The notes beneath the pieces are model-generated. The model was not told the DNA's origin, did no database searches, and saw nothing but the letters and a program-made list of their open reading frames with translations. Both the position numbers and the translations under genes were made by a program. A stretch of DNA of 64,000 bases. It comes from Rickettsiales bacterium. GTDB lineage: Bacteria; Pseudomonadota; Alphaproteobacteria; Rs-D84. The stretch spans positions 69,171 through 133,170 of the forward strand of contig JAITCH010000011.1 in assembly GCA_031283185.1 (NCBI GenBank). The letters are read 5' to 3'. Shown piece after piece: positions 2,211 to 59,735 of this stretch (position 1 is the stretch's first letter; every line of letters begins with the position of its first letter).

Positions 2211-3026
2211 ATGGAACATCTAATTAGAACTTTCGGTAGAATACACGGCAAAAAACTATCCAAACATCAGCAAAATCTGATTGATAGCCTTTTGCCAAAT
2301 TTAATTCCCCGCCAAGGGTGGCGGGGTGGCGGCGCAGCCGACGGGGTGGTTCGAATCCTGGAAATCGGTTTCGGCGCGGGCGAGCATATAATCCACCTGC
2401 TCCAAAATCCGAACTTTCATATAACCGGCGCGGACCCCTTTATTAATGGCGTCGCATCCCTATTGTCTAAATTAATAAAAAATTCTCCTCCTGTGGAGGA
2501 GTCCCCGCGAAGCGGGGGAGGTGGGTCAAACCTTAATATCAAAACGCAGACCCACCCCGGCACGGCAGAGCCGTGCCACCCCTCCACCGGAGGGGAATTA
2601 TTAGATCGTCTCGCAATCCACCCAGGCGATGTCAGAGAACTTCTAATCAAAAACCCCGACATAAAATTTGACCTGATTTATATCCTACACCCCGACCCCT
2701 GGCCAAAAGCAAAGCACGAAAAACGCCGCCTGCTCCAATCCGAATTCCTTAATGTATTAGATGAGCATCTAAATGTCGGCGGTTTGATTATATTCGGAAC
2801 AGACCATACAGATTACTTTAACTGGGCAGAATCTCAAATATTAACTTCCGCATTTATAATGTTGAAACACGATTCGTTTTTTCCGCCCGCATCAGGGCTA
2901 AATACCCGCTATAAAGTAAAAAATAAATTCGGCAGTGAACGCCCGCTTTACGCAGTCCTTGCCCGCCGAACGGAAGATTTTCCCAGTCCAGACCGCTTGG
3001 CCAAACTTGATCTAACGCTTGCATAA
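2211..3026 (+). CDS. trmB: tRNA (guanine46-N7)-methyltransferase carrying an in-frame ~40-aa insertion encoded by a palindromic repeat element
   Basis: SAM-binding ILEIGFGAGEH and PDPWPKAKHEKRR motifs of TrmB. The likely start is MEHLIRTFGRIHGKK at 2211. Residues KNSPPVEESPRSGGGGSNLNIKTQTHPGTAEPCHPSTGGEL are encoded by repeat copy A1. Confidence 0.8.
   Translation: MEHLIRTFGRIHGKKLSKHQQNLIDSLLPNLIPRQGWRGGGAADGVVRILEIGFGAGEHIIHLLQNPNFHITGADPFINGVASLLSKLIKNSPPVEESPRSGGGGSNLNIKTQTHPGTAEPCHPSTGGELLDRLAIHPGDVRELLIKNPDIKFDLIYILHPDPWPKAKHEKRRLLQSEFLNVLDEHLNVGGLIIFGTDHTDYFNWAESQILTSAFIMLKHDSFFPPASGLNTRYKVKNKFGSERPLYAVLARRTEDFPSPDRLAKLDLTLA
2481..2599 (+). mobile_element. RPE-like nested palindromic element, family A copy 1, inserted in-frame in trmB
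   Basis: Termini aattctcctcc-N4-ggaggag and cccctcc-N4-ggaggggaatt with internal GC hairpins. Homologous copies lie at 7922, 14105, 26149, 33925 and 55634. Confidence 0.75.
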
Positions 3027-3334
3027 TTCGGCGCGACAAGCGGATAATCATCCGGCAAACTCCATTTCGCGCGATATGCTTCCGGCGATAAATTAAACTT
3101 CCTTTTCAGATAACGGCGCAGCATTTTGTGCTTTGTCCCATCCTCAAAGCACACTATATAATCGGGCTTAACCGAATCCTTTACCTCCACGGCAGTCAAC
3201 TGATGCGCCGCAACTTTTTTCAATGACGCAAACGCCTCGCGCACCACATCGTCTATATTCAGCGATGGATTTCCCGCGATTTTCGCCGCCGCTATGCTTG
3301 CCGCCGCCGCTAATAATTCATTATCTTTTGACAT
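2948..3334 (-). CDS. MucR/Ros-family transcriptional regulator with a degenerate C2H2 zinc finger
   Basis: C-terminal DYIVCFEDGTKHKMLRRYLKRKFNLSPEAYRAKWSLPDDYPLVAPNYASVRSSLAKRSGLG aligns with Ros/MucR YIVCLECGKKFK...HH...EEYREKWGLP.DYPMVAP.YAE.RS.LAK. The second Cys and both His are replaced. The 3' end overlaps the convergent trmB end. Confidence 0.65.
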   Translation of the reverse strand: MSKDNELLAAAASIAAAKIAGNPSLNIDDVVREAFASLKKVAAHQLTAVEVKDSVKPDYIVCFEDGTKHKMLRRYLKRKFNLSPEAYRAKWSLPDDYPLVAPNYASVRSSLAKRSGLGKSSVRRARTA

Positions 3335-10818: not shown

Positions 10819-10904
10819 AAGGTTTATTATATCACATCCAGTCCTATTTTGGAAAAACAAATCTGCCCCCACGAAACAGCATTTTATCTTGACAAATTAA
10901 TTAT

Positions 10905-11861: not shown

Positions 11862-12275
11862 TTATCTTTCTTGTTTCTCTTTTGCCTCTTGTTCTGCTAT
11901 GGTGATGCGGGCAATCGGTCGAACCATAAGCCGCTTTAATCCAATCTCATCCCCGGATATTTCAGAATATCCATAAGTCCCGTCTTCCAATCTTTTCAAT
12001 GCCGCGTCTATGAACTGGATCATATTACTATCGCGGTTAGCGATTTTGATTTCCATATTAAGAGTCATATCTTTATCGGCGGCGTCTTCCAAATCGCCCG
12101 GCGCATCGTCATTATCGCGCATAGTATTGCGAAGTTCAGATTCTTCCTCAATTAATTCCGCTTTTTCAGCATTAAGAAGTTGATAAAAATACGCCTTTTG
12201 CTCCAAGCACATATATGGCTCTGTTAATCTCGGCTTATATCCGGGCTCTAATGCAAGTGTTTTGTAGTCGTCCAT
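11862..12275 (-). CDS. dksA: DksA-family RNA-polymerase-binding transcription factor, cysteine-free (no C4 zinc finger)
   Basis: Coiled-coil with acidic tip GDLEDAADKD. C-terminal GYSEISGDEIGLKRLMVRPIARITIAEQE aligns with the E. coli GYCESCGVEIG...ADLCIDCKT zinc-finger region, with all four Cys substituted. Confidence 0.65.
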   Translation of the reverse strand: MDDYKTLALEPGYKPRLTEPYMCLEQKAYFYQLLNAEKAELIEEESELRNTMRDNDDAPGDLEDAADKDMTLNMEIKIANRDSNMIQFIDAALKRLEDGTYGYSEISGDEIGLKRLMVRPIARITIAEQEAKEKQER

Positions 12276-22398: not shown

Positions 22399-22658
22399 CC
22401 AAAAAACATAAGGTGCATTTTTGAGATATTTATTGGATGGCCTATCAAGCCGTTGCGATGTCGCTGGATTTTTTGAGATTATTATTATAATTAATATCGT
22501 GCAAAAAACATTAACGAGGTCGCGTTTGTTAGGATAGAACGGATAATAACCAGGAACGGCAGGGCGCGATGGGCTATCCGCCCATAAGTTTCCCTGCCGT
22601 TCCGAAGTTAGTAGCCGTTATAGACAACAAACGAAAAACCGAGGTTATGTTTTTTGGC
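22399..22658. repeat. Two family B elements in tandem: a core-less flank-only copy followed by a full inverted copy
   Basis: aaaaaacataaggtgcattttt...gttgcgatgtcgctggatttttt, then the reverse complement of the 16507-16664 element. Confidence 0.65.
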
Positions 22659-26783: not shown

Positions 26784-27101
26784 ATGGATTCTGCGGGAAG
26801 ATTTGAGTTTTTAGCGGATTTATACGAACGCACGGACAGGGCGGCGGATGCCGTTTGCGCGGCCAAGGGGCTTGACCGCGATAATTATGCCCCGCGCGTC
26901 TTCGTTTATGACCTGCTGGAATTGGCCGTGCGTGCCGGTGAATTGGCGGCGTCATCCAATTCAGGAATCAAAACGCGCCTGAATCCGCTGGTTAAAAAAT
27001 TAGAAAAAGTAAAGGGCGAGACGACCCCGTCTGCAAAGCCCATTCATAAAATGACTATGGAAGAGTTCCTAAAACTCATCGCTCCGGGGGAGAATAAATG
27101 A
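26784..27101 (+). CDS. Hypothetical small protein (105 aa), translationally coupled (ATGA) to the downstream lipoprotein gene
   Basis: ORF preceded by an RBS gaggtagaggg; no recognisable motif. Confidence 0.35.
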   Translation: MDSAGRFEFLADLYERTDRAADAVCAAKGLDRDNYAPRVFVYDLLELAVRAGELAASSNSGIKTRLNPLVKKLEKVKGETTPSAKPIHKMTMEEFLKLIAPGENK

Positions 27102-28399
27102 AAAATTGGGCATTATATTTCGCGGCTTTGGTCGCCTTGTCAGCCTGCAATAATCAAGCGGTGGATTTCGTAGAGGTTCGCACGACCAATAACTATGTCG
27201 TGGACAGCCGCAGCGTTCCCATATTCCCGAAAAAGGCCGCGCTTACCACAGATACAGCGCGTAGATTCTCCATAGAACTGCCGAAACGCTGCCATGTGGA
27301 TTGGGATAACCAAAGCGTTTTATCAATTTTGCCGTTCGAGGAAATAAATATCTATCGCGCCGATTTGGGCGATACTATGCCGAACTTGGCCGTCAAAGAT
27401 TATACTTTCGAGAAGATGAAAACCGAAGACGCATTGGCCGGTCTCTTGGACGGCACAGGCATTTCAGTTGTTTTGGATTCCGTCATAGAAACAAAAATTT
27501 CGGGCGAGATAAAGTCCGGCAGTTTGGCTGACTCGGTAGAACTGCTGACGCGGATGGGCAAGACATATTATAGTTATGACGCGTTCGCCAAGGAACTTCA
27601 TTTATTCTCCCGCACCAAATGGGTTATGAAAATGCCCAAAGACCAGCAGATTATAATCGCGTTGATTGACGCAATGCGCGGAGTTGAAAAACGCAATCTA
27701 ATAGTCAACTGGGAAGACAAGACATTAATGTTCGAGGGCGATTTCACAACAGAGAAATCCGTCCGCCGCCTTATATCCGAACTGGGATCTAAGAAGAACT
27801 TGATTGCATTTGATATGGACATATATCGCATTTATCCGCGGCAGAATGATGCCGTTGCATGGATGGATATTCTTCCTGCGTTCGGAACGAACAATATAAA
27901 GATGTCGGTGCCGGGCGTGGTCGGCAGAATGCTTGTCGTATCGCCCGAAATAAACACCAAGACCTTGCAGTCGTTTATGGCGCGGAATTCCAGTGCCGTC
28001 CTTATATCGCAGGGAACATTCATAATTCCAAACGGCTGGAATTCAAGATTTGATATTGGGCAATGCTCCAAGGAAGATCGCTTGGAAACGGAATTGATAA
28101 TCGGCGCAAGGGCGAAATTCGTGGACTTTGCCGGACTGGGGAAAAAGAAAGTTGATTCAGAAATCGTGCTTTATACCAAGCGCGGCGAATTGTCTTCATT
28201 CAAGGTTCCATCAACCCTCGGCGACAATTATGTCGTAATCGGCATACCAACCCATTCGTTTGTGTCTGAACCCGAAACCCTGGTCTCTCCGTTTGCAGAA
28301 CTGGTGGTATTCATCAGCCCGCGCGTTATAGAGGTCTTGCAGCCGGAAGATAATTTACAGGACTTGCCGGGTGATATAGTCCGCGCGATGTCGGATTAA
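27098..28399 (+). CDS. Hypothetical outer-membrane lipoprotein with a secretin-like C-terminus (433 aa)
   Basis: Lipobox LVALSAC|NN; C-terminal ...YVVIGIPTHSFVSEPETLVSPFAELVVFISPRVIEV resembles the secretin C-terminal ...LGG...vlfITPrIV signature; immediately upstream of lolCDE. Confidence 0.35.
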   Translation: MKNWALYFAALVALSACNNQAVDFVEVRTTNNYVVDSRSVPIFPKKAALTTDTARRFSIELPKRCHVDWDNQSVLSILPFEEINIYRADLGDTMPNLAVKDYTFEKMKTEDALAGLLDGTGISVVLDSVIETKISGEIKSGSLADSVELLTRMGKTYYSYDAFAKELHLFSRTKWVMKMPKDQQIIIALIDAMRGVEKRNLIVNWEDKTLMFEGDFTTEKSVRRLISELGSKKNLIAFDMDIYRIYPRQNDAVAWMDILPAFGTNNIKMSVPGVVGRMLVVSPEINTKTLQSFMARNSSAVLISQGTFIIPNGWNSRFDIGQCSKEDRLETELIIGARAKFVDFAGLGKKKVDSEIVLYTKRGELSSFKVPSTLGDNYVVIGIPTHSFVSEPETLVSPFAELVVFISPRVIEVLQPEDNLQDLPGDIVRAMSD

Positions 28400-33360: not shown

Positions 33361-33429
33361 ATATTTGTAGTTGAAATGTTAAATTAAATAGTTATAATGG
33401 GCGTTAATCTAATAATAAAGGTTAAAGAA

Positions 33430-33582
33430 ATGGCAACGAAAAGAACTTATCAGCCGTCCAAGACAAGACGCGTAAAAACCCACGGATTCCGTGAAAAGAT
33501 GGAAACCCGCAGCGGCCGCGCCGTTTTATCGCGCCGTCGTGCCAAAGGCCGCGCCCGTGTTGCGGTTTCGGCGGTAAATTAA
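33430..33582 (+). CDS. rpmH: 50S ribosomal protein L34
   Basis: [41 protein letters not shown] matches the bL34 consensus; rnpA follows. Confidence 0.85.
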
Positions 33583-33587
33583 ATGAT

Positions 33588-33926
33588 ATGGCGGTATTTC
33601 GCCGTAGTTTTAGCAACAGGGCAGATTTTATCCGCTTGAAAGAAAGCGGAAAATTTGCTCGCACTTCATTTTTTATTATGAATTTTGCGCCTGCCCGGGA
33701 GATTCCCGCGCGGTATGGTTTGATTGCGGTTAAAAAATCGTTTGGCACGGCCATTAGTCGTAATCGCGCCCGGCGTCTGATGCGGGAATGGTTAAGGTTG
33801 TCTGCGGGGCTGCTTGACCCAAATATGGATTACGCGTTGGTATTGATGCCAGAGATTTTAAGGGCGAAAAAGGAAGATGGCCTTAGGGAATTAGAAAGGG
33901 CGGTTAAAAAGTTGAGAGTAAAATAA
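33588..33926 (+). CDS. rnpA: Ribonuclease P protein component
   Basis: Conserved RNR motif (ISRNRARRLMRE); canonical rpmH-rnpA linkage. Confidence 0.8.
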   Translation: MAVFRRSFSNRADFIRLKESGKFARTSFFIMNFAPAREIPARYGLIAVKKSFGTAISRNRARRLMREWLRLSAGLLDPNMDYALVLMPEILRAKKEDGLRELERAVKKLRVK

Positions 33927-34039
33927 TTCCCCTCCGGTGGAGGGGTGGTCGCGGAGCGACCAGGGTGGGTCAAGCGTGTGGTATTAAGGGTAGACCCACC
34001 TCCCCCGCTTCGCGGGGACTCCTCCCAAGGAGGAGAATT
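33925..34039. mobile_element. RPE-like palindromic element, family A copy 5, abutting the rnpA stop
   Basis: aattcccctccggtggaggggtggtcgcggagcgacc...gactcctcccaaggaggagaatt. Confidence 0.7.
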
Positions 34040-34054
34040 AATAAGGAATATAGG

Positions 34055-34498
34055 ATGAAATATATCATTTTTATTTTGGCATTTATGATGGCGGGATGTT
34101 CTTCGGTAATGGTCAAAGAGGGGACATTGGATAAAACCCAAGGCAAGGTATGGGTTCAGCCGGGCGGATACCAAATGCGGCACGCCATAAAGCATTCGTT
34201 AGAGGAAAGAAATTTTGATTTGGTTGTTGGGAAATTATCCACGGCAAAATCATTAAAAGATATTGCGGAAATAGATACATATACATCTGACGCCAGATAT
34301 GCGGTTAGGATTGAAGAGGGCGGGCGTTGGCTGAATCCCGTATGCCTGTTTAACGGCTTTTGGTATTGGAGTTTTAACGCATCTATAAGCGATAACCAAA
34401 CGGGCAAAGAACTGCTTAGTTGGAATGCAAGGGGCTGTCAGGGATATGTCTTGCGGCGGTTAGAAGACTACCTTGATAAATTAGAAGGGAAGAAGTAG
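34055..34498 (+). CDS. Hypothetical lipoprotein (147 aa)
   Basis: Signal and lipobox LAFMMAGC|SS. Confidence 0.4.
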   Translation: MKYIIFILAFMMAGCSSVMVKEGTLDKTQGKVWVQPGGYQMRHAIKHSLEERNFDLVVGKLSTAKSLKDIAEIDTYTSDARYAVRIEEGGRWLNPVCLFNGFWYWSFNASISDNQTGKELLSWNARGCQGYVLRRLEDYLDKLEGKK

Positions 34499-34507
34499 GA
34501 TTACATT

Positions 34508-36841
34508 ATGGATTACAAAATAATAGAAAAGAAATGGCAGGATAAATGGTTTAACTCCGATGTCTTTACAGCGGGTCTGCCGGTTAATTCCAAAAAAGAA
34601 AAGAAATATGTGTTGGCGGAATTTCCATTCCCAAGCGGGGACGGGCTTCATTTGGGGCATATATTGAATTATTCAGGATTGGATGTTGTGGCGCGGTTTT
34701 GGAGGATGATGGGGCGCGATGTCCTGTTTCCATTCGGCTTTGATTCTATGGGTATAGCGGTTGAGAATTACGCCGTAAAAAATAATATGACGCCGCAGGC
34801 GGCACTTGCCAAGTCTTCGGCGAATGTTCTGCGGCAGGCCAAGGCGTTTGGGCTGAGTTATGATTATTCCAAAGTGTTGATGACTTCCGACCCGGAATAT
34901 GTGAAATGGACGCAATGGCAGTTTATTCAACTCTTTAAGTTGGGTCTATTATATAAAGCCCCATTGCCGATTAATTGGTGCCCTGCTTGCCGGACGAATT
35001 TAACCAATGAAGAATTGGATGAAAATGGCTGCTGCGACAGATGCCACGGGCCAATGGAAAAGAAGAATAAAGAGCAATGGAATTTTGCCATAACGAAATA
35101 TGCCGACCGCCTTGTGGATGACCTTGCGCTGGTGGACTTTCCAGAAAATGTGAAAGAAGCGCAAAGGAATTGGGTGGGTCGTTCCTATGGGGCAGAGATA
35201 GACTTTAATGCTTTCCGTGTTTATACAACGCGTCCTGATACTATATTTGGCGTGTCGTTCTGTGCTATATCGCCGGAACATAATTTGGTTGCGGAATGGT
35301 TGGCGGCGGGTCGCGTTAAGAATGCGGATGCGGTTAAAAAATATATAGCGGATGCCAAGGCGAAAACACTGATTGAACGCACCGATATTACGAAAGAGAA
35401 AACGGGCGTGAAGATTGAAGGGGTGGTTGCGACCAATCCATATAATAAAAAAGAAGTTCCGATTTTTGTTGCGGATTATGTCTTGGCAAATTACGCAACC
35501 GGCGCGATTATGGCAGTGCCGTCAGAGGACGAACGCGATAGGGAATTTGCAGAAAAATTCGGCATAGAAATTATAGAAGTAAAGGACGCGGATGGACGCG
35601 CAATAAACTCTGATTTTATGAATGGAATGGACAAAGATGCGGCGATAAAAAAAGCCATAGAAAATGGTGAAAAAGCCGGGTTTGCAAAGGCGGCAAAAAA
35701 GTATAAAATGACGGATTGGGGCTTTTCGCGCCAGATGTATTGGGGCGAGCCGATTCCGCTGGTATATTGCCCTGAACACGGATGGCAGCCGGTGCCGGAA
35801 AATGAATTGCCTTTGTTGCAGCCGGTTATGGATAATTTCAGACCGACCCCGGAAGGCGAATCGCCATTGGCGCGCGCTACTGATTGGGTCAAGGCGAAGT
35901 GTCCCGTATGTGGTGGCGCGGCAATGCGTGAAACGGATACTATGCCGCAATGGGCTGGTTCCTGCTGGTATTATATCCGTTTTATAGATCCGAAAAATGA
36001 CAAGGCTTTTGCCGACAAAGAATTGATAAAAAAATGGCTGCCGGTTGACCATTATAATGGCGGCTTTGAACATGTAACGCGCCATATGATCTATGCCCGT
36101 TTTTGGTATAAGGCATTATTTGATTTGGGTTTGGTGCCAAGCCCCGAGCCGTTTGCAAAGCGCACCATTAATGGATTGGTATTGGGCAAAGACGGATTTA
36201 AGATGTCTAAATCGCGCGGGAATGGAATTAACCCGGATGATTTGATTTCCGAGATGGGCGCAGACGCGGCGCGTTTATTCGTGCTATTCTTGGGTCCCTG
36301 GGATCATAATACCCTGCCGCTAGATGATGTGAAGACGGGCGTGAAAAGGTTCTTGTCAAAGGTAGAAGGTTTAGCCGCCCGCGTGCAAGATGTGGATGGT
36401 GATGTTGCGGCGCGGATGAAGTTTATAAAGGATATTACAGAACGGATTCCCGATATGCGGTTTAATACTTCGATTGCCAGAATGATGGAATATGCGAATG
36501 AATTGGGTAAAACGGACGCGGTGCCGCGTGCAGGTTATGAATCCCTGATAAAGGCTTTATCTATATTCGCGCCACATTTTGCCGAGGAAATCTGGGAAAA
36601 TCTAGGGCATAAGGACTTTATTGCATCCGCAGATTGGGATAAGTTTGACGCAGCGTTGGCAGAATCCGGCGATATAGTAGTCGTAGTATCAGTTAATGGA
36701 AAACGCCGCGCGGAAATAAATGTTAAGAAAGACGCAAAAGACATAGAAGAATTGGCGCGTGATGCGGCGTCCAAATTTATAAATGCGCCGGTTAAACGCG
36801 TGGTGGTGGTTCCGAATAAAATGGTGAATTTTGTCCTATGA
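34508..36841 (+). CDS. leuS: Leucine--tRNA ligase
   Basis: HIGH-region PFPSGDGLHLGHILNYSGLDVVARF; KMSKS FKMSKSRGNG; Zn-binding CPACRTN...CCDRCH; 777 aa; canonical leuS-lptE-holA order. Confidence 0.9.
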   Translation: MDYKIIEKKWQDKWFNSDVFTAGLPVNSKKEKKYVLAEFPFPSGDGLHLGHILNYSGLDVVARFWRMMGRDVLFPFGFDSMGIAVENYAVKNNMTPQAALAKSSANVLRQAKAFGLSYDYSKVLMTSDPEYVKWTQWQFIQLFKLGLLYKAPLPINWCPACRTNLTNEELDENGCCDRCHGPMEKKNKEQWNFAITKYADRLVDDLALVDFPENVKEAQRNWVGRSYGAEIDFNAFRVYTTRPDTIFGVSFCAISPEHNLVAEWLAAGRVKNADAVKKYIADAKAKTLIERTDITKEKTGVKIEGVVATNPYNKKEVPIFVADYVLANYATGAIMAVPSEDERDREFAEKFGIEIIEVKDADGRAINSDFMNGMDKDAAIKKAIENGEKAGFAKAAKKYKMTDWGFSRQMYWGEPIPLVYCPEHGWQPVPENELPLLQPVMDNFRPTPEGESPLARATDWVKAKCPVCGGAAMRETDTMPQWAGSCWYYIRFIDPKNDKAFADKELIKKWLPVDHYNGGFEHVTRHMIYARFWYKALFDLGLVPSPEPFAKRTINGLVLGKDGFKMSKSRGNGINPDDLISEMGADAARLFVLFLGPWDHNTLPLDDVKTGVKRFLSKVEGLAARVQDVDGDVAARMKFIKDITERIPDMRFNTSIARMMEYANELGKTDAVPRAGYESLIKALSIFAPHFAEEIWENLGHKDFIASADWDKFDAALAESGDIVVVVSVNGKRRAEINVKKDAKDIEELARDAASKFINAPVKRVVVVPNKMVNFVL

Positions 36842-37326
36842 AAAAGTTAACCTGCATTTTTGCTGTTCTTGTTTCCGCTTGCGGATGGACGCCGCTTTAT
36901 TCCACTGGCGAAAAGAATCAGTTGGAATATCCTGTGCATATAAAGGCGATTGCCGGTGCGGAAGGTGTGGTGCTGAGAAACCGAATTCGGACGGAATTAA
37001 ATCCTTTTGGCGAGCCTAACGACCCGCGCTATACATTGGCTGTTAAATTAAATCCCCGGGCGGAGACATATAAGGGCATTCAGAGGACGGGGGATGCAAC
37101 CTGGCAGGAGATTCGTATAACGGCTTCGTTTGACTTGATTGATTCTGTGTCCGGCAAGGCTGTTCTCAGCGACTCTGCCGAGGTGTCGGAATCCTATACA
37201 TTTGTGCAGAATTTAATAGCGGCGAATTCTGCGTCAGAGGCGGCGACTTCGTCCGCATTAAGAATTCTATCAGAGAAGATTTCCATGCGGATAAAGATCT
37301 TTATCAAATCCGGGGCGGCGATATGA
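36838..37326 (+). CDS. lptE: LPS-assembly lipoprotein LptE (RlpB)
   Basis: Lipobox LVSAC|GW; 162 aa; conserved position between leuS and holA. Confidence 0.55.
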   Translation: MKKLTCIFAVLVSACGWTPLYSTGEKNQLEYPVHIKAIAGAEGVVLRNRIRTELNPFGEPNDPRYTLAVKLNPRAETYKGIQRTGDATWQEIRITASFDLIDSVSGKAVLSDSAEVSESYTFVQNLIAANSASEAATSSALRILSEKISMRIKIFIKSGAAI

Positions 37327-38312
37327 AGTGGAAAGAAATTGATTTGGACACCGCTGTCGCCAATAAAATGGCAGGGTTAAGGGGTGTTTTATTGGCCGGA
37401 CAAGATGCCGGTAAAATTTCCGAAAATGCCGGGAGAATTGTGAAATCTTTGGGCTTGCAGAAAGACTGCATAATCAAATGCGCCCTGACCGAATTGAAGT
37501 CTGATTCCGATCGCCTTTTTGCAGAGGCCTGTTCCGATTCATTATTCGGAGACAGGCGCGGCATTGTTATAACCGATGCGACTGCAACCAAAGGGGACGC
37601 GAATGTTATAATGGATTTATGTCGTGAACCGACCTTATCCGCGTTTGTAATCGTGCAGGCCGGAGATATGAAAAAAGATGCGGAATTAAAAAAGTTTTTT
37701 GAGGCTGCCGCGGACTTTGCGTCCGTGGATCATTACCTGGATACCGAGCGGGATTTGCCCAATATCATCAAAAACATTTTGTCAGCGGAAGGGGTCATAG
37801 ACATTTCAAGGGACGCGATGGTTTATATGTCGAGATCCCTGGGGGGCGACCGGGGACAGACGCGCCGCGCATTGGAAAAACTTGCGATGTTCGTCCAGGG
37901 GCGGAAAGTCGAATTGGAAGATGCTGTCGCTTGTATTGGGGATTCTGGCGCGGCGGCGATTGATCAACTGCTTTATTCTGCGACTGCCGGGCGGGCGTCT
38001 GATACGGCGTCTGCATTTGACCGATTAATAGAAGATAAAATTGTTCCAGCCCAAATTATCCGCGCGCTGTCCCGACATCTTAAAACATTGTTGGCGGCGA
38101 AATCATCCAATCTGCCGCCGGTGGTGTTTTGGAAATATAGGGATTTGGCGGCCGAGGCTTGGAAATTATGGACCCCGGACAGATTGTCGCAGGTCTTGGC
38201 GAGGGTGCCCGAGGTTGAAAAGGATTTGCGCGGATCAAAGTCCGAAGAAGCCGTATTATCCAAGTTCTGTTTGGATATTGCGGTTTATGCGGCGAAATTC
38301 AAGAAGAGGTGA
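37323..38312 (+). CDS. holA: DNA polymerase III subunit delta
   Basis: 329 aa; position after leuS-lptE; delta N-terminal domain pattern (MKWKEIDLDTAVANK...). Confidence 0.55.
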   Translation: MKWKEIDLDTAVANKMAGLRGVLLAGQDAGKISENAGRIVKSLGLQKDCIIKCALTELKSDSDRLFAEACSDSLFGDRRGIVITDATATKGDANVIMDLCREPTLSAFVIVQAGDMKKDAELKKFFEAAADFASVDHYLDTERDLPNIIKNILSAEGVIDISRDAMVYMSRSLGGDRGQTRRALEKLAMFVQGRKVELEDAVACIGDSGAAAIDQLLYSATAGRASDTASAFDRLIEDKIVPAQIIRALSRHLKTLLAAKSSNLPPVVFWKYRDLAAEAWKLWTPDRLSQVLARVPEVEKDLRGSKSEEAVLSKFCLDIAVYAAKFKKR

Positions 38313-41970: not shown

Positions 41971-42858
41971 TTATATTATCTCATAATTATCCGGGTCGGA
42001 AAATAACATCCTTAACGCCAGATTATTCAACGCGTGCGAGCCTTTATAACTCTCCACCCTGCCTTGCAACACACCGCCAGCCAACGCAAAATCCCCCAGC
42101 ATATCCAGCACCTTATGCCGCGCAAATTCATTCTTCCATCTCAGTCCCCAAGGCTTCGGATTCGCCACTCTATCCCCATCCAATGCAATAACATTCTCTT
42201 CATTCGCACCCCGCGCCATACCGCGCTTTTTCAACGCATCCCACTCCGCCAAGTTCCCAAAAGTCCTTGCCCTTGCCACATCTTTCTCAAAATCCTTAAT
42301 ATCTTTCAGGGCAAATTTCTGGTCGCCAATGATTTTATTATTATAGACCAACCGCGCTGAAAATTCCGCCTTTCGCGCTGGCGAAATCTTTACATATCCA
42401 TCCCTGCCCCCGCGCCGAAACAGCCCCAAAATCCGCATCAATAACGGCATTTTCAAGCGCAAATCCCTTGCCCGCGCCACAATCTCTTTTTTAACAATTA
42501 TCGTTTTGGGCTTTCTGCCCGCCACCACCGGCTTTAACTTTTTATAAAACTCCTCGGCGCAGCCATCCATAATCGGAATCTCCGCCCCGTCCGTTTCCAC
42601 CACCGCATTATCAATCCCCAAAGCATAAAAAGCCGCCATCAAATGCTCTATCGTCTGAACCCGCGCCTTGCCATCCTCCAACGAAGTGCTTCGCATCTCC
42701 GTCCCGACTACATTATCAAACCGCGCCAAAACACTTTTGCCCAAATCGGAACGCGTAAAGACCACCCCGCCATTTCCCGGCCGTAGAGTCATATTAAACG
42801 CCTCGCCCGAATGCAATCCCACGCCGCGAAATTTGACTATATTTTTGATGCCAGCCAT
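41971..42858 (-). CDS. lpxC: UDP-3-O-acyl-N-acetylglucosamine deacetylase
   Basis: N-terminal IVKFRGVGLHSGEAFNMTLRP and later LpxC Zn-site blocks; 295 aa. Confidence 0.8.
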   Translation of the reverse strand: MAGIKNIVKFRGVGLHSGEAFNMTLRPGNGGVVFTRSDLGKSVLARFDNVVGTEMRSTSLEDGKARVQTIEHLMAAFYALGIDNAVVETDGAEIPIMDGCAEEFYKKLKPVVAGRKPKTIIVKKEIVARARDLRLKMPLLMRILGLFRRGGRDGYVKISPARKAEFSARLVYNNKIIGDQKFALKDIKDFEKDVARARTFGNLAEWDALKKRGMARGANEENVIALDGDRVANPKPWGLRWKNEFARHKVLDMLGDFALAGGVLQGRVESYKGSHALNNLALRMLFSDPDNYEII

Positions 42859-44898: not shown

Positions 44899-45473
44899 TC
44901 CGCCAAGTGATCGCTATGTGGATTTTTATCTAAATTCCTGTTCCGCACCCCTGCCTCGGCCTCTATTTTCCGCAGCACCATTACCAATTCCGGGTCGGAT
45001 TTTATATCTTCTGCGCGCGCTGATTTCGCCGCAGATTTCAACGCTTTCTCAAATTCCGCAGCAAAATCCCGCAATGTCGCCATATATATATTAATATGAT
45101 CTTGTTCGTGGCGCAATACCGCATTATATTCGCAACTGCCTTCATTAAATCTGCCATCAATCCTTATATCAAAATCATATCCAATTTCAGCGCGCACCGA
45201 TTTCAGCGCAGTGCAGCCATCAAATTCTTCCATTTTCAGGTCGTATTTCGCCCGAAAAACCGCCTCAACATCGCCAAAATGATCGGACAAGTCCGCGCCC
45301 TGAGACACGGAAATCTCCGGCTTTAATACCCTCACCCCCACCAAAACAGACGATTTCGGACAGGCGGCAATCGCAGGCATTACCAAAATCAGACTAGCCG
45401 CCAAAAGACCGCAGATATTCCCAAACAAAGCCACTTCCTTGTTTTTTATAAATCTCTTCCGCCAATAATACAT
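44889..45473 (-). CDS. Putative secreted/lipoprotein Zn-metallopeptidase-like protein (HExxH; DUF922/COG5661-like). Start at MYYWRKRF (45473) overlaps the virB4 end; alternative start at MPAIAAC (45380).
   Basis: Signal peptide with lipobox LVMPAIAAC; HEQDH motif (RHEQDHINIY). Confidence 0.35.
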   Translation of the reverse strand: MYYWRKRFIKNKEVALFGNICGLLAASLILVMPAIAACPKSSVLVGVRVLKPEISVSQGADLSDHFGDVEAVFRAKYDLKMEEFDGCTALKSVRAEIGYDFDIRIDGRFNEGSCEYNAVLRHEQDHINIYMATLRDFAAEFEKALKSAAKSARAEDIKSDPELVMVLRKIEAEAGVRNRNLDKNPHSDHLAECK

Positions 45474-47802
45474 TTTTCCGCCCGCTCTCAAATAGTCTTA
45501 TATAGCCACCAAGTCCCGCCAATTCCGTATTCAATATGACCGATTCCCCGGTAATTGGCCGCCGTAGCAATAATCCGCGTTTAAGATTTGGATAAAGTTT
45601 CCCCTGGATAAACGCCTGCTCCATCGGATTCAGACGCCAATGCTCGTAATCCGAAATATCCGCCGCCGGATTACGGAAGAACAATATAGTCTGCGCCTGA
45701 CCACGCACAACATCCCCAATCCCCAGTTTATCCAATATATTCGCCCGCTGAAACGCCGCCATATACGCCTGCCGGTTTTTCCGCCCCTCTTGTAATCCTA
45801 TGATAAAGTTCTTTCTGAACTGCTCGTTTTCCAACATCGGCGCGGTTTCGTCTATCATTACCAAACTGGGATTTCCGCCCGACAGGGTTATATTATTCAC
45901 CCTTTGCAGCAAATAACTCAGCACCGCCGGAGACAGAGTTTTATCCTCTAATATATTCGTAAAGTCAAAAGTTGTGAGCCGCGACCTTAGATCCACATTA
46001 TCTTCTTTGGCATTAAACACAGATCCATATTGGTTGTCATCAATCCATTTCTTCATATTCGCGCGGACATCACCCTGGCTGGAAAAGCACGCAGGCACAA
46101 GGTTTTTCAGATTCCTGTCGTCTTTATCTATATAATCAAATACGACTTCCACAGCCTCTGCAATTTCGTCCATTGCCGCCGCGCCATTCGCCTCTGAAAT
46201 TATCCCCAGCCATCTTTTAAGAAAGTCTCTGTTCGCCGCGCTATCATCCATCATCAACGGATTCATACTGGCTTTTACACCGGCCGCTATATTATCCGCA
46301 TTTTCGGATTTGCTATCAAATGTAATGTATTTCCCGCCGATCCCAAGAGTAAATATCTCCGCGCCGCGATTCCTGTCGAAAAAGAAGGTTTTTAATTTCT
46401 GATGTCTTAACGATTGCGAAATCAAAAATGAAAATAAAGTCGTCTTACCAGTTCCTGTCGGCCCTATCACAAGACTATGCGCCACCGCCGCCGGGGCATT
46501 CGACACATGGAACTGGAATTTATACGGCGTTCCTTCCGCAGTCGGGAACACCGCGATCGCCCCGTTTCCCCAATCCGAATTATCATTGCCCTCGGGCACT
46601 GATGCCAGCGGAATACTCGCGGACGCAGCATTGGTCAGCATTGCAAAACTTCGCGGGAACATATCAAATCCCGGCATAAGCGAAAAGAACGCTGGCTTTA
46701 ATGCAAAATTTTCCGCAACCGAAGACACGCCAAAACTCGCGCAGATCTTTCCAAATTCCGCCGCCGCAATTTTTAACTCTTCTTTTGTATCGGACATAAT
46801 CATAAACAGCGGATAATAATCTATCAGATTTTGATTGCCGGCAGTTTCCTCATCCATTCTATCCCGCGTTTCTTCAATCTGTCTGTTTAAGGTATCAAAT
46901 GCCCGCTCGTCATCCGCCGATACTTGTTTTCTCTTAAATAAATTCTCCGCCGCTTTTTTCGACATAAACTTCATACCATTCATTACCACCATCTCGCTCT
47001 GCACCGCCGATAACGAAGTAAAGAAATCTTCATCCATAAAATCCGGCGCAGTGCGATATGATAATATATTCGCATATTTTACCCCGGTGCCGGATGAAAA
47101 CACCAATGTTCCATTATCAAATGATACCGAATCTGTCGCTACAATTTCAGATATATCTAAATTCTTCATCAACACATTATGTCCCGAAACCGGGGATAAA
47201 ATTTTTGCATAAAATGATGCAAAATTTTCCCTTTCCGAATGCCTTGCAACCCGCGGATTATAAGGCGCGAACATATTCTCGAATAATTCAGATACTTTGG
47301 ACAGCGAACTTATATCCGGCGCGTCTATTACCATATAATGTTCGTTCTTATATAGTTTCATCCCTTGGCTATTCCAAGCGTCATGAATTTCCTGTAATAT
47401 CTTTTCATCAAACTCGAAATTCGTCCGCGCATCATCCTTCGTTCGCGTCATAAAGAAACGAAGTGTCGCGCCATCAACGCCCGCCATATTCAAGAAGCGA
47501 GATCTCAGGTCAAAATACTGCGCTCTTTTATTTTCATCCTGCATCGCCAACTGCACACCTGAAATTTTATAAATCCGCGCATAATGTTTATTTTTTAATG
47601 TAATCGTAATATCGTCTTCCAATGCATTCATAAACGGCAGATAATTTCCATATCTTAAAAATCCAAATTTGGGAAACAAAATTTTCGACAGCACAGATGC
47701 ATATAAAAGAAACAAAATAAACAGCGTGAACAATCCACCCATAACCGAAAGCAAGGTTATATAATCGCTATTCGCCGTAAAAACATTTATCAGATTTTCC
47801 AT
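45394..47802 (-). CDS. virB4: Type IV secretion system ATPase VirB4/TrbE
   Basis: 802 aa; Walker A IGPTGTGKTTL; VirB4 C-terminal blocks; preceded by virB3. Confidence 0.75.
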   Translation of the reverse strand: MENLINVFTANSDYITLLSVMGGLFTLFILFLLYASVLSKILFPKFGFLRYGNYLPFMNALEDDITITLKNKHYARIYKISGVQLAMQDENKRAQYFDLRSRFLNMAGVDGATLRFFMTRTKDDARTNFEFDEKILQEIHDAWNSQGMKLYKNEHYMVIDAPDISSLSKVSELFENMFAPYNPRVARHSERENFASFYAKILSPVSGHNVLMKNLDISEIVATDSVSFDNGTLVFSSGTGVKYANILSYRTAPDFMDEDFFTSLSAVQSEMVVMNGMKFMSKKAAENLFKRKQVSADDERAFDTLNRQIEETRDRMDEETAGNQNLIDYYPLFMIMSDTKEELKIAAAEFGKICASFGVSSVAENFALKPAFFSLMPGFDMFPRSFAMLTNAASASIPLASVPEGNDNSDWGNGAIAVFPTAEGTPYKFQFHVSNAPAAVAHSLVIGPTGTGKTTLFSFLISQSLRHQKLKTFFFDRNRGAEIFTLGIGGKYITFDSKSENADNIAAGVKASMNPLMMDDSAANRDFLKRWLGIISEANGAAAMDEIAEAVEVVFDYIDKDDRNLKNLVPACFSSQGDVRANMKKWIDDNQYGSVFNAKEDNVDLRSRLTTFDFTNILEDKTLSPAVLSYLLQRVNNITLSGGNPSLVMIDETAPMLENEQFRKNFIIGLQEGRKNRQAYMAAFQRANILDKLGIGDVVRGQAQTILFFRNPAADISDYEHWRLNPMEQAFIQGKLYPNLKRGLLLRRPITGESVILNTELAGLGGYIRLFESGRKNVLLAEEIYKKQGSGFVWEYLRSFGG

Positions 47803-47803
47803 C

Positions 47804-48094
47804 TTACCCTATTAAATTCTTTGGAATCTTCATACTTATCATTCCCATTTTCGCCGCAATCATTTTTCCCAGTTGCGGTTCCGACTTTGATACATTCGCC
47901 AATATATAATGCATAATTATAAACGGCATCACAAACCAAAGCGGATTTATCCCATCCCCAAATACCACAAAATGCGCCATAAAAGCCCCTATGAAAATAA
48001 GGAAAAAGACAAAAAAATTAACCATAGCAATGCCATACGGCACACCCAAAATCCTTATCGGATTCGTAATCGCTTTATATATCGGTTCTCTCAT
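47804..48094 (-). CDS. virB3: Type IV secretion system protein VirB3/TrbD
   Basis: 96 aa with two TM segments (GIAMVNFFVFFLIFIGAFMAHFVVF...), directly upstream of virB4 with a 1-nt gap. Confidence 0.6.
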   Translation of the reverse strand: MREPIYKAITNPIRILGVPYGIAMVNFFVFFLIFIGAFMAHFVVFGDGINPLWFVMPFIIMHYILANVSKSEPQLGKMIAAKMGMISMKIPKNLIG

Positions 48095-48389
48095 CTCTCC
48101 CTCTCATCCCAATTCTAACATTTTCAACAATTTTTAACAAGAGATTACCCCATATTCTCAATAATTGTTAAATCAACATTTTATCCACAATAATTAACAT
48201 ATCTGTTAATAATGTGTTTTATTGGCTTAAATCAATGATTTATTATGTTAATATATCTGTTTATAAGTTTTATTAACTGATTTAACACCCTAAACAACAA
48301 AAACAATAATACTTATTTGTTATATGAAAAATCCCCATTGCAAGCAAAGGGGATAATGACACAGGCATTTTGAGTTATGATAATCAAGA

Positions 48390-48524
48390 TTATTTCTTCT
48401 TATAACCCTGTTTTGCCTTGAACTTAGGATTCTTTGGATCCAATAATATAACCTGTTTTCCGCGTCTGACCTGTTTCAGATCGCCGCGCTTTTTCCAACC
48501 TTTTAACGAACTTAATATTTTCAT
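48390..48524 (-). CDS. rpmJ: 50S ribosomal protein L36, type B (zinc-independent paralog); 44 aa, absent from the ORF track
   Basis: Minus-strand translation MKILSSLKGWKKRGDLKQVRRGKQVILLDPKNPKFKAKQGYKKK aligns along its full length with bL36 ([37 protein letters not shown]). The four Zn ligands are replaced, as in the E. coli YkgO-type C-minus form. A TTGATT-17-TATAAA promoter-like sequence lies upstream at about 48545-48575. Confidence 0.7.
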   Translation of the reverse strand: MKILSSLKGWKKRGDLKQVRRGKQVILLDPKNPKFKAKQGYKKK

Positions 48525-48622
48525 CATAAATTCCTTTGATAAATTTTCCGTATATTTATAATATAATTATCTTGAAAAATCAAGCAATAAGGATAAACTT
48601 CTAAAATAGGGGTTATAAAACT

Positions 48623-53398: not shown

Positions 53399-55633
53399 AT
53401 GAACTTACTAATAGTCGAATCACCGGCAAAATCTAAAACAATCGAAAAATACTTGGGCGCGGACTTCAAGGTAATGGCATCTATCGGCCATGTCCGCGAC
53501 CTACTCCCAGAAGACGGCTCCGTTGACCCAAATAATAACTTTAAGATGATCTGGCAAATTATGCCCGATAAAGAAAAACAAATAAAGGCCATATCCGACG
53601 CGCTTAAAAAATCCGATACGCTCTATCTCGCAACCGACCAAGACCGCGAAGGAGAGGCCATCGCTTGGCATCTCTATGATATATTGTCCGAACGCGGATT
53701 ACTTGTCGGCAAAAAAGTATATCGCATAACATTTAATGAAATTACCAAACGCGCAGTTCAAGCCGCTTTGGAATCCCCGCGCGAAATAGACCAAAGTTTG
53801 GTTAATGCCTACCTTGGCCGCCGCGCTTTGGATTATCTTATGGGATTTAACCTGTCCCCCGTTCTATGGCGCAAGGTTCCGGGCGCGAAATCCGCAGGCC
53901 GCGTTCAATCCGCCGCGCTCGCATTATTGGTCGCCCGCGAGCGTGAAATTGAAGAATTTAACCCGGTTGAATACTGGTCAGTTGACGCGGATGTCAAGGC
54001 CAAGGGCGGAAAATTTAATGCCAAACTTTCCGAATCAAATGGCAAAAAAATAGATAAACTATCCATTTCTACCAAGGATCAAGTTGATGAAATCCTATCC
54101 GCGCTTGTCCCGAACCTGCCGGGCGTGGTTAAAAAAATAGAGAAAAAGCAAACCTCGCGCCGCCCCGCCGCGCCGTTCACCACTTCCACCCTGCAACAAG
54201 AGGCATCTCGCAAACTTCATTTTGGCGCGCAGCGCACTATGCGTGCCGCTCAAAAACTTTATGAAAAGGGATTTATAACTTATATGCGAACGGACGCAGT
54301 CAACCTTTCCGAAGACGCACTTTCCGCTATCCGTTCTTACATTTCTTCCAGTTTTGGCGCGCCATATTTACCCGCCGCGGCCATTCGCTATGCAAACAAG
54401 TCTAAAAACGCGCAGGAAGCGCATGAAGCCGTCCGCCCTACTGATTGCGCCAAGACATCCGTAATCGGCCTTGTGGAGCATACCGATGAAGAGAAATTAT
54501 ATGAATTGATTTGGAAACGCACCTTGGCCTGCCAAATGACAGACGCAAAATTTGATGCGGTCGCCGTGGACATTATCCCGGCCAAAGTATCCGCAGTATT
54601 CCGCGCAACCGGCAGCACCCAAACCTTTGACGGATTCCTTAAATTATATCAGGAAGGCGAAGACGATAAGGAAGACGAGAACGAGGTTAAAATCCCGCCG
54701 CTTACCGAAGGCGAAGAAATAGTATTTACGGCATTCAATTCCGAACAGCATTTCACTATGCCGCCGCCGCGCTTTACCGAAGCGACCCTGGTTAAAAAAC
54801 TGGAAGAACTTGGCATAGGACGGCCTTCAACTTATGCGACCATTTTGGGTGTCATAGTTGACCGCGAATATGCAAAATTGGAAAAGCAGAGATTTTTCGC
54901 AACAGAAAAAGGTTGGATAGTCGCCGCATTCCTCGGTAAGTATTTCGAGCAATTTGTCGCGTCAGATTTCACCGCAGGCGTAGAAGACAACCTTGACCAG
55001 ATTGCAGAATCCAAAGCCGAATGGACAAAAGTTTTGCGCTCTTTCTGGGATTTGCTCTCATCCAAAATCGCCGCGGCCAAGGAAGTATCAACAGCGGATG
55101 TTATGACTGAAATAAACAAAATCCTTAGCCCCCATTTATTCAAGGACGGCGGCGACATTTGCCCTGAATGCAAAAAGGGCAAGGTCGGATTACGGCTGGG
55201 CAAATTCGGCGCGTTCCTCGGATGCGGAAATTATCCCGACTGCAAATACATCAAAAACATTGGCGATAACGCCGCGCCCGCAGGCGGATCCGCAAACAAA
55301 GACTTGGGAGACGGAGTATTCTTCAAGGTCGGACGATACGGCCCCTATGTTGAGCAAGGCGACAAACGCGCATCGGCAAAAAACGAAACTTCGGAAACCA
55401 TAACTCTTGAAAAGGCACTTGAACTTTTATCAACCGGCGGACGGGCGGAGGCCGAAGAACTAGGCGATCATTCCGGCACCCCGATAAAATATCACGCGAC
55501 TGGAAAATTCGGCCCCTATATTTCTTGGGGCAAGGTCAACGCCTCGGTCAAAACCCGCCCAGAGTTAGAGGACGCAATCGAAATCATAGAAAAGAAAAAA
55601 CTCGCCCCTAAAAAGTTTTTTAAGAAGAAATAA
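53399..55633 (+). CDS. topA: DNA topoisomerase I
   Basis: TOPRIM N-terminus MNLLIVESPAKSKTIEKYLG, catalytic region, C-terminal C4 zinc ribbon CPECKKG...CGNYPDC; 744 aa. Confidence 0.9.
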   Translation: MNLLIVESPAKSKTIEKYLGADFKVMASIGHVRDLLPEDGSVDPNNNFKMIWQIMPDKEKQIKAISDALKKSDTLYLATDQDREGEAIAWHLYDILSERGLLVGKKVYRITFNEITKRAVQAALESPREIDQSLVNAYLGRRALDYLMGFNLSPVLWRKVPGAKSAGRVQSAALALLVAREREIEEFNPVEYWSVDADVKAKGGKFNAKLSESNGKKIDKLSISTKDQVDEILSALVPNLPGVVKKIEKKQTSRRPAAPFTTSTLQQEASRKLHFGAQRTMRAAQKLYEKGFITYMRTDAVNLSEDALSAIRSYISSSFGAPYLPAAAIRYANKSKNAQEAHEAVRPTDCAKTSVIGLVEHTDEEKLYELIWKRTLACQMTDAKFDAVAVDIIPAKVSAVFRATGSTQTFDGFLKLYQEGEDDKEDENEVKIPPLTEGEEIVFTAFNSEQHFTMPPPRFTEATLVKKLEELGIGRPSTYATILGVIVDREYAKLEKQRFFATEKGWIVAAFLGKYFEQFVASDFTAGVEDNLDQIAESKAEWTKVLRSFWDLLSSKIAAAKEVSTADVMTEINKILSPHLFKDGGDICPECKKGKVGLRLGKFGAFLGCGNYPDCKYIKNIGDNAAPAGGSANKDLGDGVFFKVGRYGPYVEQGDKRASAKNETSETITLEKALELLSTGGRAEAEELGDHSGTPIKYHATGKFGPYISWGKVNASVKTRPELEDAIEIIEKKKLAPKKFFKKK

Positions 55634-55762
55634 ATTCTCCTCCGATGGAGGAGTCCCGGCGTAGCCGGGGAGGTGGGTCTACCCTAAATCAAAGGCTCAA
55701 CATAGGGACTACGCTCATTGCCCACCCCGCCCTGCGGGCACCCCTCCCGGGGAGGGGAATTA
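55634..55762 (+). mobile_element. RPE-like palindromic element, family A copy 6, filling the whole topA-dnaG spacer
   Basis: aattctcctccgatggaggagtcccggcgtagccggggaggtgggtctaccc...cccctcccggggaggggaatt. Confidence 0.7.
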
Positions 55763-55771
55763 AAGGAACAA

Positions 55772-57340
55772 ATGGCAAACGACTACAAATCTTTTAGGGA
55801 CGAACTCTTAGGCCGCATCTCTATCGTAGATGTAGTCGGCCGCCGCGTCCCGCTTAAAGCCAAGGGTCAACATTTTTGGGGCTGCTGTCCGTTCCACAAT
55901 GAAAAAACCCCCTCATTCTCTGTCAGCGAAGAAAAAGGATTTTACCATTGCTTTGGCTGCGGCGCGCACGGCGGCGCGATAGACTTTTTAATGAAGACCG
56001 AAAACCTGCCGTTTATGGAGGCTATGGAACATTTGGCGCAGATGGCCGGAATGGAAATGCCGAAATTCGCGCCCGTTGATCCCGCCCAGGCCGCCCGCGC
56101 AATGGGTTATGTTGATATTATGGCGGAGGCGGCGCAGATTTATTCGCAGGCTCTGTTTCAACCCGAAGGGAAACAAGCATTGGAATATCTTCGGGGTCGC
56201 GGCTTTACGGATGAAATGATTGGCAAATATCAACTCGGCTTTGCGCCGAAGGGGAATAAAATCGCCGCAAAATTTGCCGGGCGCGACCGCAAATTATTAT
56301 TATCCACTGGGATTGTCCGTCCGTCCAACACTCCCGGCGGCGCGGATTATGACTTTTTCCGCGGCCGCGTAATGTTCCCGATATTGGACGCCAAAAACCG
56401 CGTCATTGCTTTTTCCGGCCGCTCTATGGACGGCGAAGAGCCCAAATACATCAACATAGCCGAAACCGAATTTTTCCATAAGCGGCGCACCCTTTATGGA
56501 TTCAACTTCGCCCGCAGCGACATAATTAAAAACCGCCGCGCCATAGTAGTCGAAGGCCAAATAGACGCACTCCAAATGCAATGCGCGGGATTCGGCGAAA
56601 CCATCGCGCCACTCGGTTCCGCATTAACAGATGACCACGCACAGATATTACTGAAAATAACCAAATCAATCGTCCTCTGCTTTGACGGCGATAATGCGGG
56701 TAAAAAAGCCGCCGCCCGCGCAGTTGATGTAATACTGCCATTTATGACAGCTGAAATGGATATAAAAATTTTGACCCTGCCCGGCGGCAAGGATCCCGAT
56801 GACATCATCCGCAATTCCGGCGCGGCGGGTATGCAGGATTTATTAAATGGCGCGACTCCACTCCCCGAGTATTTATGGAATATGGCATTAAATAATTTTG
56901 CTGTGCAGACTCCGAACGGACGGGCACTCGCTGAAAAGTTTTTAATAGAGCGCAGCGATATGATTGGAGACGACACATTGCGCCGCCATATGTTCACGAC
57001 GCTTAAAAATATGATGTGGGATAATTGGAAGGGCGGAAAGACAATTTCCAAAACCAATATCAAAATTCCCGTTATAAAAACCGAGGAAGATTTTTTATCC
57101 GAAATCGCAGAAACATACCCGGAACTTAGGGATAAATACTTTGAGTTGTTTGCCAGTAAAAATTGCAAAAAAGCCGGGGTTAAAACCACAATACCCGAAC
57201 AGGACGCCGAGAAATTTATCCGTAAAATAAAACTCAAAGATTATATAAGCGGGCTTAAAGCGGATTATGAACAATCTCAATCTGCCACCCTCCTCTCCGA
57301 AATCGTCAAAATGGAAAAAGCCTTGGAAGAACTTGTATAA
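55772..57340 (+). CDS. dnaG: DNA primase
   Basis: Zn-ribbon CCPFHNEKTPSFSV...YHCFGCGAHG, TOPRIM EGQIDAL; the true start MANDYKSFRDEL lies downstream of the repeat-derived ORF extension. Confidence 0.85.
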   Translation: MANDYKSFRDELLGRISIVDVVGRRVPLKAKGQHFWGCCPFHNEKTPSFSVSEEKGFYHCFGCGAHGGAIDFLMKTENLPFMEAMEHLAQMAGMEMPKFAPVDPAQAARAMGYVDIMAEAAQIYSQALFQPEGKQALEYLRGRGFTDEMIGKYQLGFAPKGNKIAAKFAGRDRKLLLSTGIVRPSNTPGGADYDFFRGRVMFPILDAKNRVIAFSGRSMDGEEPKYINIAETEFFHKRRTLYGFNFARSDIIKNRRAIVVEGQIDALQMQCAGFGETIAPLGSALTDDHAQILLKITKSIVLCFDGDNAGKKAAARAVDVILPFMTAEMDIKILTLPGGKDPDDIIRNSGAAGMQDLLNGATPLPEYLWNMALNNFAVQTPNGRALAEKFLIERSDMIGDDTLRRHMFTTLKNMMWDNWKGGKTISKTNIKIPVIKTEEDFLSEIAETYPELRDKYFELFASKNCKKAGVKTTIPEQDAEKFIRKIKLKDYISGLKADYEQSQSATLLSEIVKMEKALEELV

Positions 57341-59534: not shown

Positions 59535-59735
59535 ATGCCGAAACTGAAAACAAAGTCGAGCGTTAAAAAACGATTCGCAACTACCGCATCCGGTAAGGTC
59601 AAAGCCGCCGCTTGCAATAAAAACCACTTCAAGTCCAAGAAATCATCTCGCGCCCTCGCAGACATCTGCCACGGCAAAACGCTGAATTCTACAAACGCTA
59701 AGAAGATGAAAAAACTCGCCCCATACGGGCTTTAA
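59535..59735 (+). CDS. rpmI: 50S ribosomal protein L35
   Basis: MPKLKTKSSVKKRF...KKSSRALAD consistent with bL35; followed by rplT. Confidence 0.8.
   Translation: MPKLKTKSSVKKRFATTASGKVKAAACNKNHFKSKKSSRALADICHGKTLNSTNAKKMKKLAPYGL

Follow-up and report, generated by a model that had tools for sequence, protein, structure and literature searches.

A short gene on the minus strand of the window, which is the whole 64,000-nucleotide stretch of DNA analysed here, very probably represents a type B rpmJ, likely the sole bL36 gene of its organism, whose zinc independence was inherited and did not arise as a local adaptation. Under this explanation, finding a YkgO-like L36 free of Cys in an alphaproteobacterium points to the normal housekeeping protein and should not be taken to signal zinc starvation. 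The gene would form a one-gene transcription unit under a conserved sigma-70 promoter of its own and be translated from an AAGGA ribosome-binding site, its transcript would be terminated before virB3, and the protein, carrying no zinc ion, would occupy the usual place of bL36 in the 50S subunit. The type B form itself would have brought the zinc independence, having Arg in place of ligand 1 and a hydrophobic residue in place of ligand 4 throughout, so that the order Rs-D84 would have lost only the last non-liganding relic Cys of bL36. The Cys4-less DksA of the same window and its MucR with C,D,Y,F would likewise be inherited variants that work without zinc. The features on which this explanation is built are collected in the table.

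Coordinates of the window features discussed in the text, with the evidence for each
Feature	Position	Strand	Evidence or description
mucR/ros family regulator	2948..3334	-	PF05443 107 bits (cut-off 25.4); GenBank MDR2685937.1; alignment to Ros87
dksA	11862..12275	-	Pfam DksA_N, TIGR02420; GenBank MDR2685946.1; alignment of 64 homologs
leuS (control)	34508..36841	+	CxxC pairs kept (CPAC...CDRC, CPVC); Pfam and motif listing
lpxC, zinc-dependent deacetylase (control)	41971..42858	-	EHL and HKVLD (His/Asp site) kept; Pfam LpxC 241 bits
virB4	45394-47802	-	After virB3; gene calls and Pfam, own contig and relatives
virB3	47804..48094	-	Conserved downstream neighbour of rpmJ; gene calls and Pfam, own contig and relatives
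Terminator-like hairpin (AUCCCC...GGGGAU and short U run)	48326..48354	-	Between rpmJ and virB3; RNA fold
rpmJ (type B, zinc-free bL36)	48390..48524	-	44 codons and stop; Pfam, NCBIfam, GenBank, type B PDB matches, pN/pS
Shine-Dalgarno-like AAGGA	48532..48536	-	4-7 nt 5' of the two candidate ATGs; from sequence
Sigma-70-type promoter	48555..48583	-	-35 TTGATT 48583-48578, 17-nt spacer, -10 TATAAA 48560-48555; sequence and footprint
topA (control)	53399..55633	+	C4 zinc ribbon intact (CPEC...CGNYPDC); Pfam Zn_ribbon_Top1 residues 587-622
dnaG (control)	55718..57340	+	CHC2 finger intact (CCPFH...CFGC); Pfam Zn_ribbon_DnaG 123 bits

The rpmJ ORF, translated from the window sequence, reads MKILSSLKGWKKRGDLKQVRRGKQVILLDPKNPKFKAKQGYKKK followed by its stop codon. 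An in-frame ATG at 48527, one codon 5' of the ATG at 48524 (ATGATG), would give a 45-aa form beginning MMKIL..., and this longer form is matched exactly over its 45 aa by GenBank entry MDR2685982.1, "50S ribosomal protein L36", which is annotated from the 48527 start on a contig of 142,120 bp. The proteins of the relatives begin with MK(I/F)L, and this speaks for the ATG at 48524 as the rpmJ start. The earlier note on this DNA called the gene unlisted, which is true of the ORF list that its reader had been given but not of GenBank, and the type B L36 gene found here belongs to an already known, annotated class.

Profile and structure searches placed the protein in this class as a distant member. 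The Pfam family PF00444 (Ribosomal_L36) aligned residues 1-40 of the ORF to profile positions 1-38 of 38 with an E-value of 1.1e-5, although the score of 25.9 missed the gathering score of 26.1 by 0.2 bits, and a precomputed PF00444 match is present on several of the relatives. The sole NCBIfam match, with an E-value of 5.4e-8 and 32.6 bits against a curated cut-off of 70, was to NF002021, 'type B 50S ribosomal protein L36'. Because its scores fall below the curated cut-offs of both collections, the window bL36 can be regarded as a divergent type B member, and automated pipelines can miss the bL36 of Rs-D84/Enterousia, or leave it unnamed in some assemblies, when it lies under such thresholds. 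The top matches among solved structures were type B bL36 chains in ribosomes (9hig_3, 24yw_6, YkgO in 6i7v, and 28ye_Z). An AlphaFold2 model made from a 14-sequence clade alignment was of low confidence (pLDDT 62, pTM 0.28), and a Foldseek search of this low-confidence model against the PDB returned no match at E<=0.001, the top two matches (E about 4) being bL36 of P. gingivalis.

The alignment with E. coli YkgO (bL36B, 6i7v chain C5) extends over the full length and includes the extra residues of the first knuckle and the basic KKK tail at the C-terminus, and both proteins lack the Cys of ligand 1 and the His of ligand 4. YkgO keeps two Cys, whereas the window bL36 has none. In the HMM alignment, R13, L16, D29 and F35 of the window protein occupy the columns of C11, C14, C27 and H33 of E. 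coli RpmJ, the sequence of which was verified against the PDB. The absence of all four zinc ligands was thus correctly recognized in the earlier note, while the residues that it placed there (W, R, L and N) have to be replaced by R, L, D and F. Its assignment of the ORF to a Cys-minus, YkgO-type bL36 homolog is borne out by the Pfam and NCBIfam matches and by the structure match to YkgO, and the ORF is, on the sequence evidence, a genuine gene whose bL36 product falls into type B, the Cys-minus class that includes YkgO.

Conservation among relatives bears on whether the ORF is a gene at all, and the earlier note had considered that it might prove non-conserved. The first homolog search returned thirteen 90%-identity clusters with 78-98% identity, all of them Cys-free, and a scan with one genome per GTDB species recovered a relative of rpmJ in 265 genomes. 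The locus was retrieved for 80 of these 265, and the protein was Cys-free in every one (80/80). Against six relatives, pS ranged from 0.72 to 0.94, so that synonymous sites are nearly saturated, while pN was 0.057-0.093, and the resulting pN/pS of 0.06-0.13 indicates strong purifying selection. An ORF of only 44 codons that scores just below a Pfam gathering threshold might in principle be a chance open frame and no gene, but with such selection, retention in 265 species genomes, type B bL36 matches along the full length, and conservation of the promoter, the ribosome-binding site and the terminator, a chance frame is almost inconceivable.

The wider class to which this gene belongs was surveyed with a clade profile of 14 members, scored against 1.84 billion representative proteins. 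The profile matched 254 proteins at E<=1e-3, and the best 149 of these 254 matches were bL36 proteins exclusively, all of type B. Aligned to E. coli RpmJ, these best 149 most commonly showed R-C-N-F (70) or R-C-C-F (35) in the ligand columns; a Cys at ligand 1 occurred in none of them, a His at ligand 4 likewise in none, and 20 of the 149, from at least three distinct sequence groups, were entirely Cys-free. The type B class as a whole is therefore zinc-independent, and within it the relic Cys have been fully lost repeatedly. The nearest named matches outside the clade were the bL36 proteins of Lyticum sinuosum and Candidatus Organicella extenuata, two alphaproteobacterial symbionts. Together with 28ye_Z, these type B proteins (WP_322498396.1 and WMI30542.1, respectively) are about 41-44 aa long and share with the window bL36 the pattern MK(V/I)xSSLK...RR...NP(K/R)FKA(K/R)QG; some of them are Cys-free, and they are recorded plainly as bL36 or L36.

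Within this class, the Rs-D84 clade is distinguished by an invariant Trp10, by G(N/D) where D-C is found elsewhere, by RRGKQ in place of the RR(K/R)GR seen elsewhere, and by Asp-Pro (Asp29-Pro30) where other type B proteins have (Asn/Cys)-Lys, and these substitutions account for the score under the NCBIfam cut-off. One Candidatus Enterousia MAG contained two slightly different L36 loci (JAZUKY010000081.1 and JAZUKY010000050.1), which would reflect either a mixed-strain bin or a duplication.

The genomes with rpmJ relatives are MAGs from termite gut, rumen, and human or animal faeces, and many of them are titled Candidatus Enterousia. Candidatus Enterousia belongs to the GTDB order Rs-D84 of the Alphaproteobacteria, whose members live in the gut, have genomes of about 0.75-1.0 Mb, and have been suggested to depend on a partner. 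The source organism is a member of this gut-associated, genome-reduced lineage, and its NCBI label "Rickettsiales bacterium" is a placeholder. This placement speaks against the zinc-poor intracellular niche proposed in the earlier note, since the organism is a gut-associated Rs-D84/Enterousia bacterium and no demonstrated intracellular Rickettsiales.

The rpmJ gene lies between mreC, which is divergent on the plus strand, and virB3-virB4. In the relatives examined, mreC-mreD-mrdA-rodA stand on one side of rpmJ and virB3-virB4 on the other, and rpmJ adjoins virB3-virB4 in all eight loci checked. Relative to virB3-virB4, rpmJ has the window orientation in relatives from termite gut and the opposite one in the Enterousia group, and genes for PilO and T2SS-E were seen nearby in relatives.

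The promoter-like sequence TTGATT-17-TATAAA reported earlier upstream of the ORF is indeed present and coincides with an invariant footprint in the relatives. Across six loci, the only invariant intergenic blocks upstream of rpmJ were TTGATTTTT and TTATAA, with a variable spacer between them. Among the 79 relatives with sufficient upstream sequence, 77 showed TTGATT-N16/17-TA(T/A)AA(T/A); in 74 of these 77 the -10 hexamer was the consensus TATAAT, and in 73 of the 77 the motif ended 21-24 nt before the ATG. An AAAGGA block also recurs in the aligned upstream regions of the relatives, in keeping with the Shine-Dalgarno-like sequence of the window. A generic promoter and terminator scanner flagged neither the promoter nor a terminator of rpmJ in the window, and it missed the promoter because the -10 hexamer ends in A instead of T. 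On the 3' side, the 83-nt stretch with the window hairpin had a folding energy of -13.4 kcal/mol with a z-score of only -0.75, which makes it a weak hairpin, while a clearer, non-homologous GC hairpin with a T run follows rpmJ in all six relatives examined. From the promoter footprint and the downstream hairpins, rpmJ can therefore be taken as a monocistronic unit with a strong and conserved promoter of housekeeping type.

In E. coli, YkgO is a second copy beside the zinc-binding RpmJ, is controlled by Zur, and is co-located with ykgM. The earlier note saw the window gene in the same light, as a paralog for zinc starvation, in which case a zinc-binding rpmJ would be found elsewhere in the genome and the window copy would be a back-up kept silent by Zur as long as zinc lasted. 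The shared sequence class with YkgO is compatible with such a role, as is the fact that only 64 kb of the source genome were read, but the regulatory and comparative evidence renders it highly improbable. The Caulobacter Zur study provided the core of the proteobacterial Zur box, GTTA-N5-TAAC, which had no exact occurrence in the 64-kb window; sites with one mismatch numbered 11 against 16.9 expected by chance, none of them in the rpmJ promoter, and an exact core was found upstream of rpmJ in only one of 79 relatives, the other 78 lacking it. Since the promoter spacer is variable, it leaves no room for a conserved Zur operator and shows no operator footprint, while the near-consensus promoter itself has been kept across the 79 relatives examined. 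Neither a type B L31 gene nor zinc-uptake genes are linked to rpmJ in the window and the relatives examined, and no second L36 was seen in the 64-kb window or within flanks of up to 10 kb in the relatives. Unlike ykgO, the window rpmJ thus has no Zur-box core, has other neighbours, and is preceded by a conserved promoter of its own.

Precedents from other Alphaproteobacteria also argue against a back-up copy. The Zur regulon of Caulobacter crescentus includes no ribosomal-protein genes and its genome has no ribosomal-protein paralogs, zinc regulation of ribosomal genes was not seen in Paracoccus denitrificans, and no more than three out of 995 bacterial genomes lack bL36. Given these precedents, the near-universal presence of bL36, and lineage genomes of under 1 Mb, a sole and constitutive bL36 is the simplest reading. 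On the 64 kb of genome and the short flanks of relatives that were read, the window rpmJ is thus most likely the only bL36 of the organism and constitutively expressed. Alphaproteobacteria as a rule use type B as their bL36 and are not known to carry another form, in accord with the Caulobacter Zur regulon and with the names of the PDB chains.

The two other proteins of the window that had been described as zinc-free, DksA and MucR, were aligned with their homologs. At the positions of C114, C117, C135 and C138 of the verified E. coli reference, the window DksA has S, S, T and E and the Cys4 zinc finger is absent; the earlier note was right that all four Cys are gone, and its reading of S, S, T and A is corrected at the last position. 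The zinc-finger domain PF01258 accordingly scored 18.2 bits against a cut-off of 24.9, whereas the coiled coil was recovered (PF21157, 40.1 bits) with an intact DxxDxA tip (DLEDAA). The pattern S,S,T,E was shared by all 41 closest DksA clusters, and the next group, which is the nearest outgroup, had C-T-(C/S/T)-A. DksA of Rhodobacter sphaeroides (RSP2654), which likewise has no Cys4 finger and retains one of the four Cys, is experimentally functional. Both this protein and DksA2 of P. aeruginosa are functional regulators that resemble the window DksA in having the DxxDxA tip and no Cys4 finger, but they carry C-T-T-A and C-T-C-A, that is, one and two Cys, respectively, where the window protein has S,S,T,E.

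The window MucR, aligned to Ros87 (PDB 2JSP) with an E-value of 1.2e-20, has C, D, Y and F at Ros C79, C82, H92 and H97, in agreement with the earlier count of one ligand kept out of four. The coordination sphere of C2H2 (or C-D-H-H) type is absent from it, and a His that is conserved four positions past the Asp (G-T-x-H) could still act as a ligand. Among the best 120 MucR homologs, C,D,Y,F was the commonest pattern (58), followed by C,D,H,Y with 32 and C,D,Y,Y with 27 homologs; C,C,H,H did not occur (0). The Ml4 and Ml5 proteins of Mesorhizobium loti are zinc-lacking Ros/MucR proteins that fold and bind DNA; the window MucR is like them in lacking the C2H2 set. The alignments of orthologs that had been proposed as a check thus indicate a lineage-wide loss in both proteins. 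From their sequences, DksA without its four Cys and MucR with C,D,Y,F are best described as inherited, lineage-wide variants of kinds already studied in other Alphaproteobacteria, and as inherited variants they provide no evidence of local zinc adaptation or of lost zinc homeostasis.

The earlier note had drawn the three proteins together into a wider zinc-sparing trend, that is, a lineage-specific adaptive cut in zinc demand caused by a zinc-poor niche or by lost zinc homeostasis. It is true that bL36, DksA and MucR are all without their ligands and that bL36 and DksA have lost even the last relic Cys, one step beyond their nearest outgroups. However, the loss of zinc binding is older than the lineage in all three families, so that the traits predate the organism, and the zinc sites of TopA, DnaG, LeuRS and LpxC, four other zinc-site proteins encoded in the window, are intact. 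Cys usage is also normal, at 1.08% of the 18,680 residues of the window proteins. Relic Cys that no longer serve as ligands are expected to drift, and the habitat would be the lumen of an animal or termite gut or a partner cell, which are not known to be short of zinc. An adaptive reduction of zinc demand is consequently a distinctly unlikely explanation, and inheritance of older zinc-free forms is preferred. Low-GC bias as a driver of Cys loss was considered as well and rejected, given that the window has 46.9% GC together with the above Cys content.

What does set Rs-D84 apart is the number of relic Cys, which is zero in its bL36 against one or two in the sister groups and zero of four in its DksA against one or two. 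Active purging of relic, non-liganding Cys from once zinc-binding modules is an unlikely but conceivable cause. If it were true, it would point away from drift and to selection in a gut symbiont that depends on a partner, either against reactive thiols or in favour of needing as little metal as possible. The loss of the relic Cys may be compensated by newly acquired residues that contribute to packing, for example Trp10, which is invariant, and Asp29-Pro30 in bL36. Drift explains this loss adequately, and none of the results speaks for selection against thiols.

A 749-aa ORF of the window at 8623-10872(-) has 43 Cys (5.7%), a repeated '(W/F)xCC(E/N)' module, and a C-terminus that includes a hydrophobic stretch, and no Pfam match was found for it. 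It may encode a Cys-rich secreted or surface protein, and so many Cys run counter to the notion that Cys is avoided.

Several further features of the window were noted. The medium-sized ORFs of 433, 162, 329 and 110-177 aa at 27098-28399(+), 36838-38312(+) and 33422-34498 had no Pfam match at E<=1e-4, and they are lineage-specific putative proteins. The longest ORF of dnaG (from 55718, plus strand) begins with TTG and carries a leader of 18 residues that does not look native (LPTPPCGHPSRGGELKEQ), and translation probably begins instead with the ATG of codon 19 (MANDYKS...). A 66-aa L35-like ORF (MPKLKTKSSVKKRF...) at 59535-59735(+) is located directly upstream of rplT (L20, 59759-60127), which is followed by an ORF with a tRNA-binding domain, pheS and pheT. 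Upstream of ftsQ, a 564-aa ORF at 22645-24339(-) combines an FtsA-like N-terminal part (SHS2_FTSA, FtsA) with a C-terminal ribulose-phosphate 3-epimerase domain, and this fusion is not a local assembly error, because a 573-aa protein of one relative (L007) has the same combination of Pfam domains.
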